Positions 1 through 5,946 of a stretch of 30,844 bases of DNA are shown piece after piece. The DNA comes from Cytophagales bacterium (lineage in GTDB: Bacteria > Bacteroidota > Bacteroidia > Cytophagales > UBA9547), in NCBI GenBank assembly GCA_013298205.1, contig JAAFJZ010000003.1, positions 1-30,844 of the forward strand, given 5' to 3'. The notes beneath the pieces were generated by a model. The model saw only the letters and a list, made by a program, of their open reading frames with translations, did not search any database and was not told the DNA's origin. A program made the position numbers and the translations under genes. Numbering within the stretch: position 1 is the stretch's first letter; each line of letters starts with the position of its first letter.

Positions 1-719
1 AAAATGTCGATTGCGGCAAAAGTATCTTTGGTGGTTTCTTTTTCGTTGGTAAAAATCAAACCTAATTTTTCAGCTATTTGCCATATTATTTCTGCGTTTA
101 GGTTTGGTGTTCTTTCTGCTGTTTGCCCGATGGTTTGTTGTTTGGTGGTTTCTGGGTATAGGTAGAGGGGGAAAAAATAGTTTCCTTCTTGTCCTTTATT
201 TGAGATTAGGCATCTATCACTAATATCGTCTGCTACAAAAGTATGATAGTAAAATTTGCTCGATAATATTTTTGTAGTAACTAATGCAATATTCTCTTTT
301 ATAAAATGCTTTTGTAAGTCAACTCTTAATCTTTGAATTAATTGATTATTGTATATAAACTTTCTTTTATCAAATAATCTATAATTGTAAACAACGATAT
401 CATTTTCATCATAAGTTATATGGTTTTGATTTAATTGCGCTTTTAAACTTTCATTATTCATTCCCACAAAAATATCATCTTTACCAGTGGCTGTACCCAT
501 TTTAAATAATGTAAAAACTTCATCAACCTTAAACCCCTTTTCATAACCTTCATTTCCTTCAAAATTCTTTTTCACCAAAAAGAAATTGGGCGTTTTTGGT
601 TTTAGTTCGTTCCACTCAATGCATTTCAAAGAGTTATTATTCAAAAACTCGTATTTCGCATCTCGTTTGCCATAGAGGTCAAAATGAAATACTTGGGCGT
701 GGGTGGTATCTTTAGTCAT
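1..719 (-). CDS. C-terminal half (specificity/target-recognition region, Type ISP C-terminal-like) of a split Type IIG-like R-M enzyme; runs off the left edge
   Basis: Not in the ORF track. Manual translation from ATG at 719 is open to position 1 (239 codons): MTKDTTHAQVFHFDLYGKRDAKYEFL...YNYRLFDKRK...YFFPLYLYP...RTPNLN...TFAAIDI. These motifs are typical of the C-terminal part of ~1000 aa N6-MTase/Type ISP_C proteins. The ATG overlaps the upstream stop (ATGACTAA). Confidence 0.85.
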   Translation of the reverse strand, partial: MTKDTTHAQVFHFDLYGKRDAKYEFLNNNSLKCIEWNELKPKTPNFFLVKKNFEGNEGYEKGFKVDEVFTLFKMGTATGKDDIFVGMNNESLKAQLNQNHITYDENDIVVYNYRLFDKRKFIYNNQLIQRLRVDLQKHFIKENIALVTTKILSSKFYYHTFVADDISDRCLISNKGQEGNYFFPLYLYPETTKQQTIGQTAERTPNLNAEIIWQIAEKLGLIFTNEKETTKDTFAAIDI

Positions 720-1779
720 TATTATTATCTAGTTGATGGGTGAGTTGCTCTATGCTTGGTAAGGCATTTTTAATGTTTTCGGGGAGTTGCGTATAAGTAT
801 ATTCACTCACACCCAAAGGTTTATTGATATCATGTAAAGCAAAATCAACTACAACATTGTTTTTACTTTTGCACAACAAAATCCCAATAGTGGGCTTGTC
901 TGTTTCGTCTTTTACTAATTTATCCACCGTTGTAACATAAAAATTTAATTTCCCCAAATATTCAGGTTTAAAATTAGTTACTTTTAATTCTATTATTACA
1001 TAACATTTTAGCTTGGTATGGTAAAACAACAAATCTGTTTTGAATAATTCACCCCCTACATTAAGTTCAAATTGTCGCCCCAAATAGGCAAACCCTTTGC
1101 CCAATTCCAACAAAAAACGAGTAATATTTTCTATCAATTTTTGTTCTAATTCCAACTCTTTTACTTTGCTAGATAGTGTCAGAAACTCAAAATTATAAGT
1201 ATCTTTTAACAAGGCATTGGCTAGGTCGCTATCAGGGGTAGGTAATGTAGTATGAAAGTTGGTAATTGCTTTGCCCTGTCTTTCAAAAAGTTTTATTTCT
1301 ATTTGATACTCCAACACGGCTCTACTCCAATTGTTTTCAATGGTTTGTTGCACATAAAAAACGGCAATATTGGGGTCTTTTATTTTTTGTAATATTTTGA
1401 TATGATGCCCCCAAGGCACTAAGCTCAATTCCGAAACAAGTTGTTTCGTTTTTTCAATATCCAAAAGTAGAGCATCTTGTTCTACTTTTGGATATTGACT
1501 ATAAAACAGATAAAAATTTCTAATATGATATAGATTATACTTCGAAAAACCATTCATTTCTGAAAACTCCTCTTTCAAATCCTTGCTCAGTTGCTCAATA
1601 AAACCACTACCCCAATTAGTATTTTCTTGCTTTTCAACAATTTGTTTACCCAAATCCCAATAGAGTAGAATTAGTTGAGAATTAACAGCTAAAGCTGCCT
1701 TAATTTGGCTTGATTTAATAGTGGCTTTCAGTTCTATTAGCCAATATTTATAAGCTTGATTTTTAATTAGCTGGCTCAA
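712..1779 (-). CDS. YhcG/DUF1016 family PD-(D/E)XK nuclease-domain protein
   Basis: N-terminal LYWDLGKQI..WGSGFIEQLSKDL, middle PWGHH and WSR, C-terminal TDLLFYH..YVIIELK nuclease motif, GKLNFY, GILLCK. TTG start 1 nt after the upstream stop. Confidence 0.93.
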   Translation of the reverse strand: MSQLIKNQAYKYWLIELKATIKSSQIKAALAVNSQLILLYWDLGKQIVEKQENTNWGSGFIEQLSKDLKEEFSEMNGFSKYNLYHIRNFYLFYSQYPKVEQDALLLDIEKTKQLVSELSLVPWGHHIKILQKIKDPNIAVFYVQQTIENNWSRAVLEYQIEIKLFERQGKAITNFHTTLPTPDSDLANALLKDTYNFEFLTLSSKVKELELEQKLIENITRFLLELGKGFAYLGRQFELNVGGELFKTDLLFYHTKLKCYVIIELKVTNFKPEYLGKLNFYVTTVDKLVKDETDKPTIGILLCKSKNNVVVDFALHDINKPLGVSEYTYTQLPENIKNALPSIEQLTHQLDNNND

Positions 1780-1780
1780 C

Positions 1781-3649
1781 TTATTTCTTCTTTTTTACAA
1801 AAATATTGATGCTCACGCCCTGCATAATATCAAATACGTTTTGGTCTACACCTCCGTCAAGGCAAACCTCTTTCTTTTTAGCATTGCCGTGTAAATCAAG
1901 GATATAAACCTTATCAAATGTCTTTAGCAATTCTTCTCTCATTTTTCTATGAATAATTCCATCAATAAAACTATTGTTGGAAATAAATGCCAAAATGCCT
2001 TCACCAGTTTTCTCTACATAGTGTTGTCCTAAGCGAAGAAATTTTATGTAATCGTCAGAAAGTGGTTGAATATTTCGTTCGTTCAAATCCTTCTTATAAT
2101 CAGCCGTTAAGCTTTCAATCCAAGGCGATTTATTTGTGCTACTTACAGAATACGGTGGATTTCCAATCACACACATTACGGGAGCATCTCGCTTTATGTG
2201 GTTGGCTTCGTTGGCTTCGGCACTGAGCCAATTGGCAAAAAGCGTGCCTGTGTCGGGGTGGCTTTCTTCCAAGCTATTTGTGAGATAAACACGTAGTCTT
2301 TGATTTGAGGTAGGCTTGTAGCCGGTTTCGGTCAGTAGCAAATCTAGTTTAAGGTGTGCCATGGCATAACTTGCCATTAGCAGCTCAAAACCATTGAGGC
2401 GAGGCAATAGATGTGTTTCTACATAATTGCTCCAAATTCCTTTTTGCCCTTCAAATTTTTTGTGAATGTGTTTTACCACTTCTGCCAAAAAAGTGCCCGT
2501 GCCTGTGGCAGGGTCAAGTATTTGAACTTTATGTACCTCTTGCTCCGTTTTTTTGCCTTGTACATCAACCATTATTTTGGTTTTGCTGCTGTCGGCAAGT
2601 CCTTGCGGTAAATCAAATTCGGTTTTTAAAATATCATCCACCGCACGCACTATGAAGTTTACTACTGGTGCAGGTGTGTACCAAACGCCTCTTGCCTTTC
2701 GCAAAGCAGGGTCGTATTCACTCAAAAATGTTTCATAAAAATGGATGATGGGGTCTTCCATTTTTGTTGATTTGCCATAGTTTTTTAAAATCTCGGCTAC
2801 ATTGCAAGCCAAAAATACATCTACCAAACTATCTACAATCCATTTTATACGGTCGTCTATATCTGGTCCAGCTATGTAGCCAAACAGTTTGCGTAAAAAA
2901 GGATTTGATTTTGGAATGAGCTCAGCCGCTTCTTGTCGGCTAAAAGTTGCCAAAGTAGGGTCGTGCAAACGAGCGGCAAACATACCGTAAGCAATCGTTT
3001 GGGCATACACATCGGCAAATCCTTGTGGGGTAATGTCGTGTATAAGTATTTGTTTGAAAGCCAACATTTGGTCTTTCAAGGTGCTATCTTCGTTATGGGT
3101 TTCGTCACTTGTCAAAGCCTTTTCGATCACATCAGAAAGTAATCTAGCTTTGCCTGCCATCATTTCTGCCAATTTTTGTGAGCTTTTTATTGATTGACCT
3201 ACATGACTACAAAAATCTTTGATGAGGTTTTCAAAAGTTTCAAAATTTTGAGGTAAGGCAATTATTCCTTTTACTGTTATTTCTGCAATGGCAATTTTGG
3301 TAATGAATAACCCATTTCTATAAAAATGAAAATCTAAATAATCGGTAAATAACAAATTATTTAAAGATGCTTTATATCGGTCAAACTGCTCTTTATTTCC
3401 TGTTTTTTTATTGCCTTCCAGGTCTTTATCTCCAATATCTTTGGCTTCTATAAAACCTACGGGTATATCTTTTTTGGTTAAAATATAATCGGGAGCTCCG
3501 CAAGATTGTCTTTTAGGTTCGTTTGTAGCTCTTACATCGGGCAACATATTTTCCAATAGCTGTTGCAAATCCCCACGAAATGTATGCTCGGTAGCATTAC
3601 CAAGTGTATATCGCTTATTTAGATTGTCGATGTATTGCTGAATGGTCAT
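1781..3649 (-). CDS. N-terminal half of a Type IIG-like restriction-modification enzyme (endonuclease + N6-adenine methyltransferase)
   Basis: N-terminal APD...FIEAK PD-(D/E)XK motif, GVWYTP (motif X), ILDPATGTGTF (motif I), GNPPY (motif IV), FISNNSF, NVFDIMQGVSINIFVK (motif VIII region), then stop. Confidence 0.9.
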   Translation of the reverse strand: MTIQQYIDNLNKRYTLGNATEHTFRGDLQQLLENMLPDVRATNEPKRQSCGAPDYILTKKDIPVGFIEAKDIGDKDLEGNKKTGNKEQFDRYKASLNNLLFTDYLDFHFYRNGLFITKIAIAEITVKGIIALPQNFETFENLIKDFCSHVGQSIKSSQKLAEMMAGKARLLSDVIEKALTSDETHNEDSTLKDQMLAFKQILIHDITPQGFADVYAQTIAYGMFAARLHDPTLATFSRQEAAELIPKSNPFLRKLFGYIAGPDIDDRIKWIVDSLVDVFLACNVAEILKNYGKSTKMEDPIIHFYETFLSEYDPALRKARGVWYTPAPVVNFIVRAVDDILKTEFDLPQGLADSSKTKIMVDVQGKKTEQEVHKVQILDPATGTGTFLAEVVKHIHKKFEGQKGIWSNYVETHLLPRLNGFELLMASYAMAHLKLDLLLTETGYKPTSNQRLRVYLTNSLEESHPDTGTLFANWLSAEANEANHIKRDAPVMCVIGNPPYSVSSTNKSPWIESLTADYKKDLNERNIQPLSDDYIKFLRLGQHYVEKTGEGILAFISNNSFIDGIIHRKMREELLKTFDKVYILDLHGNAKKKEVCLDGGVDQNVFDIMQGVSINIFVKKKK

Positions 3650-3746
3650 TTATTGATTTTCTAGTAAAATAAGATTTTTCTTTTTGCTCACAAGAAAACA
3701 TAATTGACAGGAAAAAATATTTAAAATGATTCTTGAACCCTATCTA

Positions 3747-4550
3747 TTATTTCCTCATCACCCTAAGCTTGATTTCTGTCAGTTTTCGCTTGGTATCTCT
3801 AGGGAAATCGCCATTCATCATCCAATCAAAATAAGAAGGCTCTTGTTTGAATACATCTACAACCGCTTTATCTTTGTGTTTTCCAAAATTAAACACTTCT
3901 ACACCCAATTGGTTTAACTTCATTCTGCCTGCCAAATCCACAATTTGAGTAAAACTAAGTTTGTGCAACGATTGTATATCATTGGTTATCGGAGTAGTTT
4001 TGCCTCCTTTATCATCAATGACTTCTTTATCGGCATATTTTTCTATTTGGGCATCCAAAACTTCATAAGTAGCCAATGTATCGGCCTCTGCGCTATGGGC
4101 ATTGGTAAGCGATTTATTGCAATAAAATTTGTAGGCTGCAGACAAAGTACGGGGTTCCATCATGTGGAAAATCTTTTGCGCATCTACTATACATCTATTT
4201 TTGAGGTCAAAATCAATTTCTGCTCTTAAAAATTCTTCTACCAAGAGAGGAATATCAAATTTGATTAGATTATAACCTGCCAAATCGCAACCTTCCATAA
4301 ATTTGGCTAAATTTTTGCCTAATTGATTGAAAGTAGGTTGGTCTTTAAGCTCTTCATTCGTGATTCCGTGCACAAAAGTAGCTTCTGCCGAAATAGGAAC
4401 TGTAGGGTTTAGGCGGTAAGTTCTAGCTTCTTTTTCTCCATTAGGATTCACTTTCAGCATACCTATTTCAATAATCCTGTCATGGGTAATATTCATTCCA
4501 GTGGTTTCTAAATCAAAGAAAAGGAGTGGCTTTTTGAGGTGTAAAAACAT
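3747..4550 (-). CDS. DEDDh 3'-5' exonuclease (DnaQ/epsilon-like)
   Basis: FFDLETTG (ExoI), GYNLIKFD (ExoII), HSAEAD (ExoIII); C-terminal FNFGKHK module. Confidence 0.92.
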   Translation of the reverse strand: MFLHLKKPLLFFDLETTGMNITHDRIIEIGMLKVNPNGEKEARTYRLNPTVPISAEATFVHGITNEELKDQPTFNQLGKNLAKFMEGCDLAGYNLIKFDIPLLVEEFLRAEIDFDLKNRCIVDAQKIFHMMEPRTLSAAYKFYCNKSLTNAHSAEADTLATYEVLDAQIEKYADKEVIDDKGGKTTPITNDIQSLHKLSFTQIVDLAGRMKLNQLGVEVFNFGKHKDKAVVDVFKQEPSYFDWMMNGDFPRDTKRKLTEIKLRVMRK

Positions 4551-4572
4551 AATTGGATTTAAGAAGAGTGGG

Positions 4573-5946
4573 TTAGGCTGTAATTTTTTTTGCTATTTGC
4601 TCAAGTGGAAGTCCGCTAAAGTTGCCAGAACTCATTAATAAGAGATTTTTGTTTTCCCAGTTTTGAGCTAGAATGTAAGTTTCTAAAGCTTTGCTATCGG
4701 TAAAAAGCTTAATTTTTTTATTATCAAAAGCTTTCCAGATTTCTGCTTCGGTAATCATTTCCATTTTTTTGGCTTCAATCGTATGTGCGCTTACAAAAAC
4801 AATGGCTTCATCTGCCGCATCAAAAGTATGGGCATATTCTTGGATAAATTTTTTGTTCAAACTGCTAAACGTATGCAATTCTAAACAAGCAAGAAGTTTT
4901 CTTTTCGGAAATTGTTTGGCTACCGATTGGGTAGTAGCCAATAGTTTGGAAGGAGCATGGGCAAAATCTTTGTAAACCACAGTATTTGAATTTTGGGCTA
5001 AAACTTGCAAACGACCAGCCGCACCTTTAAAAGAACGAATTGCTCTATAAAAGCTCGTGCTATCTATCCCCAATTTATCACAAACCGCTTTAGCCGCACT
5101 CAAATTAAGAATGTTATGTTCCCCAAAAACCTGAATATCTACATTTCCTGTAGTTGTTTTAAGAGAAGTTAAGCCATTTTTTATAGTGCTAGGGTGCGCT
5201 TCATACGGAATTAAGCGAATATCTTCACGCTCAAAATCACAAAGTTTTTTGAGCTTTTTATCTGTAGAATTATAAATGATTACACCTGCTTTTGGTGTAG
5301 CGTCAATCAGCTTTTTAAACTGCAATTCATAACTTTCCTGTGTAGGGAATACATTGATGTGATCCCAAGAAATGCCACTAATTACAACCAGATGATGTTG
5401 ATAAACCAAAAATTTAGACCTTCTCGTAATCGGAGAATCCAAATATTCATCTCCTTCTATTACAATCAAAGGTGCATCACTCAGTTTGACCATTTTATCA
5501 AAGCCATCAAGCTTTGCTCCCACAAGGTAATCAAATTGCACACCCAAATTTTTGAGCACGTGCAAAATCATAGAGGTAATCGTGGTTTTACCATGGCTAC
5601 CCGCTATAACGATGCGGTGTTTTTGCTTGCTATTTTCAAAAACGAAGTCAGGATAAGAATATACTTTAAGCCCAAGTTCTTTTGCTTTAATCAGCTCTGG
5701 ATTGTCTTCTTTTGCGTGCATACCCAGTATGATAGCATCAAGAGAGGAATCTATTTTTTCAGGATACCATCCCATTTCAGGAGGTAAAATGCCATTGTCT
5801 TTTAGTCTAGTAAAAGAGGGTTCAAAGATTTCATCATCAGAACCACTGACAATGTATCCATTTTCCTGTAATGCAAGGGCGAGATTGTGCATTGCACTTC
5901 CACCTACGGCAATAAAATGTATTTTGGGACGCTTATTTGATAACAT
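4573..5946 (-). CDS. mpl: Mur ligase family, Mpl-like peptidoglycan-recycling ligase
   Basis: IHFIAVGGSAMHNLA, GSD, AGSHGKTT P-loop, EGDEY, WDH, DFAHAP. Start moved from 5961 to ATG 5946 because the promoter element lies at 5963-5970. Confidence 0.85.
   Translation of the reverse strand: MLSNKRPKIHFIAVGGSAMHNLALALQENGYIVSGSDDEIFEPSFTRLKDNGILPPEMGWYPEKIDSSLDAIILGMHAKEDNPELIKAKELGLKVYSYPDFVFENSKQKHRIVIAGSHGKTTITSMILHVLKNLGVQFDYLVGAKLDGFDKMVKLSDAPLIVIEGDEYLDSPITRRSKFLVYQHHLVVISGISWDHINVFPTQESYELQFKKLIDATPKAGVIIYNSTDKKLKKLCDFEREDIRLIPYEAHPSTIKNGLTSLKTTTGNVDIQVFGEHNILNLSAAKAVCDKLGIDSTSFYRAIRSFKGAAGRLQVLAQNSNTVVYKDFAHAPSKLLATTQSVAKQFPKRKLLACLELHTFSSLNKKFIQEYAHTFDAADEAIVFVSAHTIEAKKMEMITEAEIWKAFDNKKIKLFTDSKALETYILAQNWENKNLLLMSSGNFSGLPLEQIAKKITA

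Follow-up and report, generated by a model that had tools for sequence, protein, structure and literature searches.

We analysed a window of DNA that comprises the first 30,844 bases of contig C223 in the metagenome-assembled genome (MAG) of a Cytophagales bacterium. This MAG is split into 562 contigs and is 94% complete, with 3% contamination. At its start, the window carries a restriction-modification (R-M) gene of the Type IIG kind that is divided in two by a gene for a YhcG/DUF1016 nuclease. Comparisons of sequences and predicted structures suggest that the locus probably encodes a functional two-chain form of a DrdV-like Type IIL/IIG enzyme, composed of a restriction-modification (RM) chain and a specificity-like (S-like) chain. 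The linker between the two chains would serve as a slot for cargo genes, with YhcG as an independent passenger.

Three open reading frames (ORFs) are arranged head to tail on the minus strand. They and their junctions are listed below (aa, amino acids; nt, nucleotides).

1781..3649, minus strand: RM chain (N-half), 622 aa; C-terminal end ..MQGVSINIFVKKKK-TAA, protein end ..QGVSINIFVKKKK followed by the stop
1777..1783, minus strand: junction 1, TAA stop of the RM chain, the single base G and the TTG start of yhcG
712..1779, minus strand: YhcG/DUF1016 PD-(D/E)XK nuclease, embedded cargo gene, 355 aa, TTG start
712..719, minus strand: junction 2, ATGACTAA, in which the ATG of the S-like chain overlaps the yhcG stop, 8 nt
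1..719 (frame 719..3), minus strand: S-like chain (C-half), first 239 aa, opening MTKDTTHAQVFHFDLYGKRDAKY..., protein MTKDTTHAQVFHFDLYGKR..

Reading of the ORFs and junctions on the minus strand confirmed the gene layout, the stops and starts and all sequence details quoted in an earlier note on this DNA. The same note described both halves as intact. This holds for the N-half, whose frame is open and whose motifs are present. The C-half frame is still open at window base 3, where the contig starts, and is thus cut after 239 aa. The overlap at the second junction has the form ATGAnTAA in four loci, namely the window, L016, L098 and L099. The YhcG homologues in two genomes of the same family, G002 and G014, start at the equivalent residue (MS(N)LIS..).

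The N-half matches the PADLOC model REase_MTase_IIG (PDLC03610) with 753 bits. It consists of an N-terminal PD-ExK nuclease, a helical connector and a gamma-class N6-adenine methyltransferase, in this order. The nuclease motif APDY..(x12)..IEAKD is located at residues 53-70, and P53, E68 and K70 are invariant across 54 single-chain relatives. Motif I of the methyltransferase (DPATGTG) is located at residue 379 and motif IV (NPPY) at residue 497. The Pfam families N6_Mtase, MmeI_Mtase and Eco57I all score over the cut-off. These motifs are also present in split copies elsewhere: PD..ExK and NPPY are kept in all ten split N-halves, and motif I (DPAxGTG) in nine of the ten, but not found in the divergent G264 copy. 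No HsdS or HsdR family is found above threshold in the three genes (the remaining window was not scanned for hsdR). The only HsdR-related match is sub-threshold, HSDR_N at the nuclease region of the N-half, with 16.3 bits against a cut-off of 25.1. A search of NCBIfam did not yield an informative name for the three proteins, and an exact-sequence look-up of the N-half in public assemblies returned no record.

The usual form of this enzyme is one chain of about 1,050-1,150 residues, found in about 69 of the best 80 species loci. The MAG itself contains two single-chain paralogs, C212 (1141 aa) and C462 (partial). The N-half is 91% identical in amino acid sequence to the N part of C212. Alignment with C212 defines the break. 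The uninterrupted junction in C212 reads ..NIFVKTGKKKKTDLGQVFHYDLQGKR.., and the window reads ..NIFVKKKK, stop, yhcG, MTKDTTHAQVFHFDLYGKR.. instead. In the DNA, homology stops and resumes about 18 nt apart: a six-codon Lys-rich linker is replaced, with no other loss. No target-site duplication is visible in this DNA-level comparison. The earlier note had given a short spacing between IFVK and VFH in single-chain members, which the C212 junction matches, and its proposal that almost nothing was lost and nothing duplicated agrees with the alignment. Because a stop, a foreign ORF of 355 aa and a new ATG interrupt the chain, the locus is a two-chain variant and not a canonical member of Type IIG/IIL. 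C212 (L009:5924-9349) has a feature of its own, an in-frame insertion of about 90 aa right after the conserved PLYLYPE motif of the target-recognition domain (TRD), which is rich in E, K, L and Q and coiled-coil-like.

The closest characterized relative is DrdV (PDB 7lo5/7lvv). A phmmer search with the full-length protein found DrdV (7lo5) at 4e-34, along with LlaBIII and LlaGI. When an AlphaFold model of a single-chain relative (pLDDT, the predicted confidence score, 82) was compared by Foldseek, DrdV matched along the full length at 1e-42, with MmeI, BpuSI and PglX far behind. In DrdV and MmeI-type enzymes the PD-ExK nuclease, helical connector, gamma N6A methyltransferase and TRD occur in the same order and fold as here. 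The full-length paralog matches REase_MTase_IIG with 1149 bits; the window N-half covers positions 1-495+ of this model and a complete C-half covers 655-1076. Unlike the enzyme in the window, DrdV is one chain of 1029 aa. In the split enzyme, the break lies in a loop that follows the final strand of the methyltransferase core, a foreign gene occupies the gap, and the TRD is of the Type_ISP_C kind, unlike that of DrdV.

In databases, relatives of the enzyme are labelled 'type ISP restriction/modification enzyme' or 'predicted helicase', among other names. LlaGI and LlaBIII, which are of Type ISP (PDB 5ffj, 4xqk), do share a homologous methyltransferase-TRD module (Pfam Type_ISP_C, phmmer 2e-33). 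However, Type ISP enzymes possess a RecA-like SF2 translocase, located between nuclease and methyltransferase. None is present here, and the phmmer match covers LlaBIII residues 839-1257 only. Pfam scans of the three window genes and of the 1141-aa paralog found no RecA-like or helicase family. By sequence and modelled structure, the family is therefore DrdV-like Type IIL/IIG and not Type ISP, and would not be ATP-dependent, despite the database names.

The position of the break suggests how two chains could function as one enzyme. In an alignment of 54 single-chain relatives, two near-invariant blocks enclose the linker TGKKK.NELG, where conservation between them falls to its lowest; the linker also tolerates insertions of 4 and 10 residues. 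In the model, the linker is a loop (residues 620-629) between strands 612-619 (VSINIFVK) and 630-635 (KVFHSN), with pLDDT of 85-91. The earlier note had placed the insertion at the boundary between the methyltransferase and the specificity domain. The break does lie close to that boundary, in a predicted loop between strands, although it is not at the boundary itself. The authors of the DrdV structure set the border between methyltransferase and TRD at residues 635/636 (bioRxiv 10.1101/2021.01.06.425610), and sequence alignment maps the break about 40 residues before it. The S-like chain is thus predicted to contribute the final strand or strands to the methyltransferase fold, and the two chains would then tend to form a tight complex.

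We propose the following mechanism. The first gene would supply the nuclease, the connector and the gamma-class adenine methyltransferase as the RM chain, and the third gene would supply the TRD and a conserved C-terminal domain as the S-like chain. Since the break is located in a short variable Lys-rich loop between the SINIFVK strand and the QVFHFDL strand, the S-like chain most likely completes the methyltransferase fold and associates with the RM chain through non-covalent contacts. The reassembled enzyme would act like the single-chain form, recognizing an asymmetric site, methylating one adenine and cutting at a fixed distance. A gene inserted at the loop would be co-transcribed and translationally coupled, as the 1-nt gap and the 8-nt overlap suggest. 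YhcG, a candidate anti-phage gene, most likely acts alone or as a back-up defence, as it may between hsdM and hsdS. Cargo and slot would be exchanged between loci, probably by recombination via the strongly conserved flanking codons.

The third gene can be followed only in part in the window. The partial C-half matches Type_ISP_C (PF18135) at 2.6e-22, and the complete C-half of a paralog at 4e-89. Complete C-halves elsewhere are 392-437 aa long and show a single continuous Type_ISP_C match. The window C-half lacks about 165 conserved C-terminal aa, and the contig starts at ..TFAAIDI. Alignment shows that the contig break coincides with the start of a block of about 165 aa that is near-identical in five paralogs, FAPIDILDYIYAVLHSP...HYQKIIVAL.ETDRLMKEID. 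The MAG contains five TRD starts, five C-terminal ends and four methyltransferase parts.

The same position in the C-terminal half is also an insertion site for a domain. In C462 (L008:3-2177), a DUF559 (Vsr-like) nuclease domain (PF04480, 5.9e-29) interrupts this half in frame, with ..GLTFxxE before it and FAPIDILDYIY after it. The same insertion is found in P0005, P0027, P0030, P0040, P0046, P0060, P0061, P0064 and P0105, in fused as well as stand-alone forms. The enzyme has here a second hot spot of insertion, one at the level of domains, and the window contig breaks exactly there.

The split recurs. We found 16 split loci: the window, C162, C312, G002, G003, G014, L013, L015, L016, L098, L099, L100, L101, G264, G304 and G336. 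Two others besides the window are in the same MAG. C162 reads N-half, YhcG fragment, 223-aa ORF, YhcG and a 437-aa C-half; C312 reads DUF4209, RhuM, a 402-aa C-half and YhcG. Within the same family, G002, a genome of eight contigs, has the three genes intact and colinear, in one 71%-identical nucleotide match over window positions 513-3650. G014 has a 3' remnant of an N-half, YhcG and an intact C-half beside a complete single-chain gene. Seven unrelated metagenome or genome contigs also have the split (L013, L015, L016, L098, L099, L100 and L101). In an evenly drawn sample of the phylum, the enzyme family is present in 53 of 400 genomes; the cargo-bearing split is confirmed in G264 and G304 and probable in G336, these three including a subfamily only 36-38% identical, with further short frames at contig ends left out of the split/fused classification.

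In G014 (L114:5343-10459), the order is the complete single-chain enzyme, a 204-aa ORF, a 104-aa N-half remnant that is 95% identical in amino acid sequence to window residues 529-622, YhcG and the intact 404-aa C-half. The extra set represents either a cassette that has been displaced or a spare module for specificity. C312 (L011:6659-11718) has at its contig end the last 56 aa of another TRD, followed by DUF4209 (PDC-S39), RhuM (PDC-S05), the orphan 402-aa C-half and YhcG. The orientation of the 56-aa fragment fits a junction with the window start, making this a candidate join. If the two contigs do join, one RM chain would be encoded with two S-like genes.

Searches with a complete C-half indicated that stand-alone C-halves are widespread. 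Among the best 120 of the 5169 relatives that fell within the length range searched, at least 36 distinct clusters are stand-alone by a strict filter (about 45 by eye). They start alike, with M and 4-11 aa before AQVFHFDLYGKR. Without a length filter, the best 150 of the representatives at 50% identity include about 50 full-length and about 15 stand-alone proteins; such counts of split and fused forms depend on the sampling of each database. None of the best 80 species loci has the cargo-bearing split. This absence reflects that split forms are in the minority and does not count against their recurrence; the family-level, phylum-level and metagenome searches did find them. The only split without cargo, L055:253-3485 (Bacteroidales UBA2632), has a 654-aa N-part and a 450-aa C-part in different frames with a 79-nt overlap, and resembles a plain frameshift in the same region.

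The coding sequences of the split locus are under purifying selection. The only comparison at unsaturated synonymous divergence (dS 0.68), between the window N-half and single-chain C212, gave a ratio of nonsynonymous to synonymous divergence (dN/dS) of 0.089, an average over split and unsplit lineages. With dS saturated in most of the other comparisons, dN/dS is 0.05-0.07 for N-halves between genera and 0.09-0.5 for C-halves, higher in the variable TRD. For YhcG of the window and G014, dN/dS is 0.14 with dS near saturation. Together with the 16 split loci, the stand-alone C-half clusters and the conserved N-half motifs, the low dN/dS values argue for the view of the earlier note that the locus is not a decayed pseudogene and that a single-chain enzyme became an RM and an S-like chain.

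Split loci are scattered over phylogenetic trees of both halves. In a tree of 108 C-halves, the split/fused state changes at least 14 times, and at least 10 changes are forced by supported branches. In a tree of 78 N-parts, it changes at least 7 times, 5 of them forced. A single origin of the split was therefore rejected (at least 10 and at least 5 forced changes in the C-half and N-half trees), with the limit that recombination between loci could mimic this pattern. Either the split arose independently many times, or slot and cargo were passed between loci by recombination via the conserved flanks. Both fit the trees.

The gap is consistently occupied and its content varies. All 16 split loci have at least one same-strand gene in the gap, mostly with overlapping stops and starts. 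YhcG is the commonest and accounts for 10 of the 16. Its copy in C312 is located immediately downstream of the orphan C-half, and the one in L098 is interrupted by Ns. Three YhcG subfamilies, about 30% identical to each other, are found in the slot. Other cargo includes KilA-N (PDC-S22), Bro-N (PDC-S13), RhuM (PDC-S05) with DUF4209 (PDC-S39), IS200-like Y1 transposases and unassigned ORFs. L016 and C162 contain older N-terminal fragments of YhcG beside a complete YhcG; the cargo has therefore turned over. The earlier note's question of whether the split with an intervening DUF1016 gene occurs in independent genomes can thus be answered positively. Among the best 80 species loci, which apart from some broken copies are nearly all single-chain, none has YhcG within 7 kb, and RhuM or DUF4209 is sometimes located directly 3' of the gene.

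The cargo is largely composed of the PADLOC candidate families PDC-S02, S05, S13, S22 and S39. Such PDC families were defined by their embedding in BREX, DISARM and Type I R-M systems (bioRxiv 10.1101/2024.01.29.577857). YhcG in the window is embedded in the same sense: it shares the strand of its neighbours, is separated from the first by 1 nt, overlaps the second by 8 nt and is nested between parts of a defence system. Unlike the embedded genes of Payne et al. 2024, whose survey covered multi-gene systems only, its host is a split single-gene system. That paper makes no mention of Type IIG, DUF1016 or split genes (bioRxiv 10.1101/2024.01.29.577857).

The YhcG protein is a complete nuclease of the DUF1016_N plus YhcG_C type. 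Both Pfam domains are full length (DUF1016_N, PF17761, 1.1e-39; YhcG_C, PF06250, 8.6e-60), PADLOC PDC-S02 models match with up to 468 bits, and the catalytic D..ELK motif is present (TDLLFYH..IIELK). No sequence relative was found in the PDB. YhcG is a very common nuclease. Homologues 47-51% identical to the window protein occur in three settings: between M and S, between S and R, and alone. Plasmid pHIC of Haliovirga abyssi has the order hsdR-hsdM-YhcG-hsdS, and a P. avellanae plasmid has M-S-YhcG-R, with YhcG between hsdS and hsdR; stops and starts overlap in both. Solitary homologues are found on Runella and Pontibacter plasmids. On plasmid Paks1 of Pontibacter akesuensis (L122, NZ_CP014767.1), a solitary YhcG is directly followed by a DUF4209 gene and a NERD-domain gene, so that two of the cargo families adjoin each other away from any R-M gene.

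Because its homologues are also found within Type I operons and singly on plasmids, YhcG is best read, from gene context, as an autonomous passenger and not as an obligate subunit or one peculiar to this enzyme. The earlier note had suggested YhcG as a dedicated third component. This part did not hold up: the slot also contains KilA-N, Bro-N, RhuM with DUF4209, IS200-like or unassigned ORFs, and YhcG homologues are found elsewhere.

An integrated three-component system would nevertheless account for some of these observations. YhcG would then be a guard or back-up nuclease silenced by the RM:S complex and set free once an anti-restriction protein of a phage disturbs this complex, or an additional cleavage subunit. 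Its rank as the commonest cargo, the tight coupling of stops and starts, and its absence near the best 80 species loci are all consistent with such a role. The same gene is located between hsdM and hsdS in Type I operons, and PrrC with EcoprrI provides a precedent (bioRxiv 10.1101/2024.01.29.577857). However, unrelated families and three divergent YhcG subfamilies share the slot, and close homologues are solitary on plasmids. We consider an integrated system unlikely. A more general form, in which the break wires whichever cargo is present to the state of the enzyme, is doubtful as well. The RM and S-like chains would be joined across a hairpin by non-covalent contacts alone, so that anti-restriction proteins of phage, or failed assembly, might release or activate co-translated YhcG or other cargo as a second defence line in the manner of PrrC/EcoprrI. 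As a related idea, equally doubtful, one RM chain might pair with alternative S-like chains and acquire several specificities; candidates are the orphan C-half in C312 and the cassette beside the complete enzyme in G014.

The insertion might also be selfish, with YhcG as a free-standing homing endonuclease gene that targets the conserved surroundings of the linker, like mobE in nrdA. The insertion is precise and cost no host codons, the strongly conserved flanks could be both target and homology arms, and the scatter of split loci over both trees would be expected. A functional gene-in-pieces made by a nuclease gene is known (PMC3045599). This explanation does not account for the non-nuclease cargo (KilA-N, Bro-N, RhuM) in the same slot or for YhcG homologues elsewhere, either between S and R in P. 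avellanae or solitary, and intein or intron features are absent at the locus. We also know of no site-specific cleavage by YhcG. A selfish insertion is thus very unlikely.

Several points weigh against a functional two-chain enzyme. The C-half is incomplete, and an inactivating lesion could lie past the contig end. The MAG is fragmented (562 contigs, 3% contamination). In G003, of the same family, the C-half is broken in two. The strand arrangement at the loop was read from the secondary-structure string and not from coordinates, and the saturation and averaging described above limit what the dN/dS values say about the split lineage. The enzyme could be dead here, with the open frames as young remnants of an inactivating insertion. 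Pseudogenised single-chain copies are common (for example L020, L052, L069, L084 and L094), and the intact paralogs in the MAG could make this copy dispensable. However, the three-gene module persists across genera over which synonymous sites are saturated, with dN/dS of 0.05-0.14. The start codon is at the same residue in the at least 36 clusters, and the nuclease and NPPY motifs are present in every split N-half examined, with motif I in all except one. We regard inactivation as highly improbable. A mis-join of paralogous copies, for which the many contigs, five paralogous copies of up to 90% nucleotide identity and the contig break inside the gene might speak, is barely credible: both junctions are in unique sequence, G002 has the three genes colinear in one alignment, and independent assemblies share the junction pattern. 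A functional two-chain enzyme with an independent passenger therefore remains the probable explanation.

Other features of the region were also analyzed. The N-half has a G+C content of 38%, compared with 32% for yhcG, 31% for the C-half and 30% for the remaining window, which hints at a history of the RM chain distinct from that of its neighbours. The next two genes on the minus strand encode an RNase_T exonuclease and a Mur ligase. A scan of positions 1-4700 for sigma-70 promoters and terminators gave counts at chance level. Bacteroidota -7 boxes (TAnnTTTG) were found all over the same region and are uninformative apart from one within the NIFVK codons. There, at 1798-1805 on the minus strand, the codons AATATTTTTGTA yield TATTTTTG, a -7 box 19-26 nt upstream of the yhcG start. 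It is also found in L015, L016, L101 and C162, and may be a mere by-product of AT-rich codon use.

The locus resembles several known systems. One parallel in gene organization is with Type I operons that carry embedded genes, which share the cargo families (YhcG as PDC-S02, RhuM as PDC-S05), the position between methylase and specificity genes, the strand and the overlaps. Type I differs in that M and S were separate subunits ancestrally, HsdS contains two TRDs and coiled-coil conserved regions, and cutting depends on HsdR, a separate motor-nuclease. Here the host is normally a single chain that was made two-chain by embedding, and the nuclease is fused to the methylase. The Type I cases are hsdR-hsdM-YhcG-hsdS of pHIC, PrrC in EcoprrI and the candidates of Payne et al. 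2024.

In Type IIB, RM+S (BcgI, BsaXI) and fused RMS (AloI, CjeI, TstI) enzymes both exist (PMC4081073, PMC2731913). Type IIB enzymes cleave to either side of a bipartite site and their S subunits contain two TRDs, whereas the one continuous Type_ISP_C match of complete C-halves argues for a single TRD here. To our knowledge, no gene is located between the BcgI genes. The related methyltransferase-TRD protein PglX of BREX is encoded as one or two coding sequences, and DUF1016 adjoins a cj0031-type IIG gene and is also found inside Type I loci (PMC9881135). Split PglX differs from the locus here in belonging to BREX, in having no nuclease domain and in its break point. In phage Aeh1, nrdA is split by the homing endonuclease gene mobE and the products reassemble into active enzyme (PMC3045599). 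That case is a single event in a phage metabolic gene, whereas the slot here is recurrent with diverse cargo. A literature search found no paper on this split of DrdV/MmeI-type enzymes.

By analogy, the cargo slot in the linker, which would take up accessory and probably defensive genes, mirrors the point in Type I systems where hsdM meets hsdS. In nature, one precise loop appears to be where the boundary between single-chain Type IIG/IIL enzymes and Type I systems, whose M and S are separate, has repeatedly been crossed. The natural split is the reverse of the engineered EcoKI M-S fusion, which gives a new type of system (PMC3510504). 'Guilt-by-embedding' may extend to nominally one-gene systems, whose cargo is missed by searches for multi-gene hosts. 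In annotation pipelines, the halves will receive misleading labels: 'DNA methylase', 'type ISP enzyme, partial' or 'predicted helicase'. The locus also provides a well-defined operon context for studying YhcG function. Finally, it indicates that DrdV/MmeI-type enzymes have, immediately upstream of the recognition domain, a natural site at which a split is tolerated. With such a site, recognition modules could be exchanged in the form of separate subunits, something long sought for programmable restriction enzymes.

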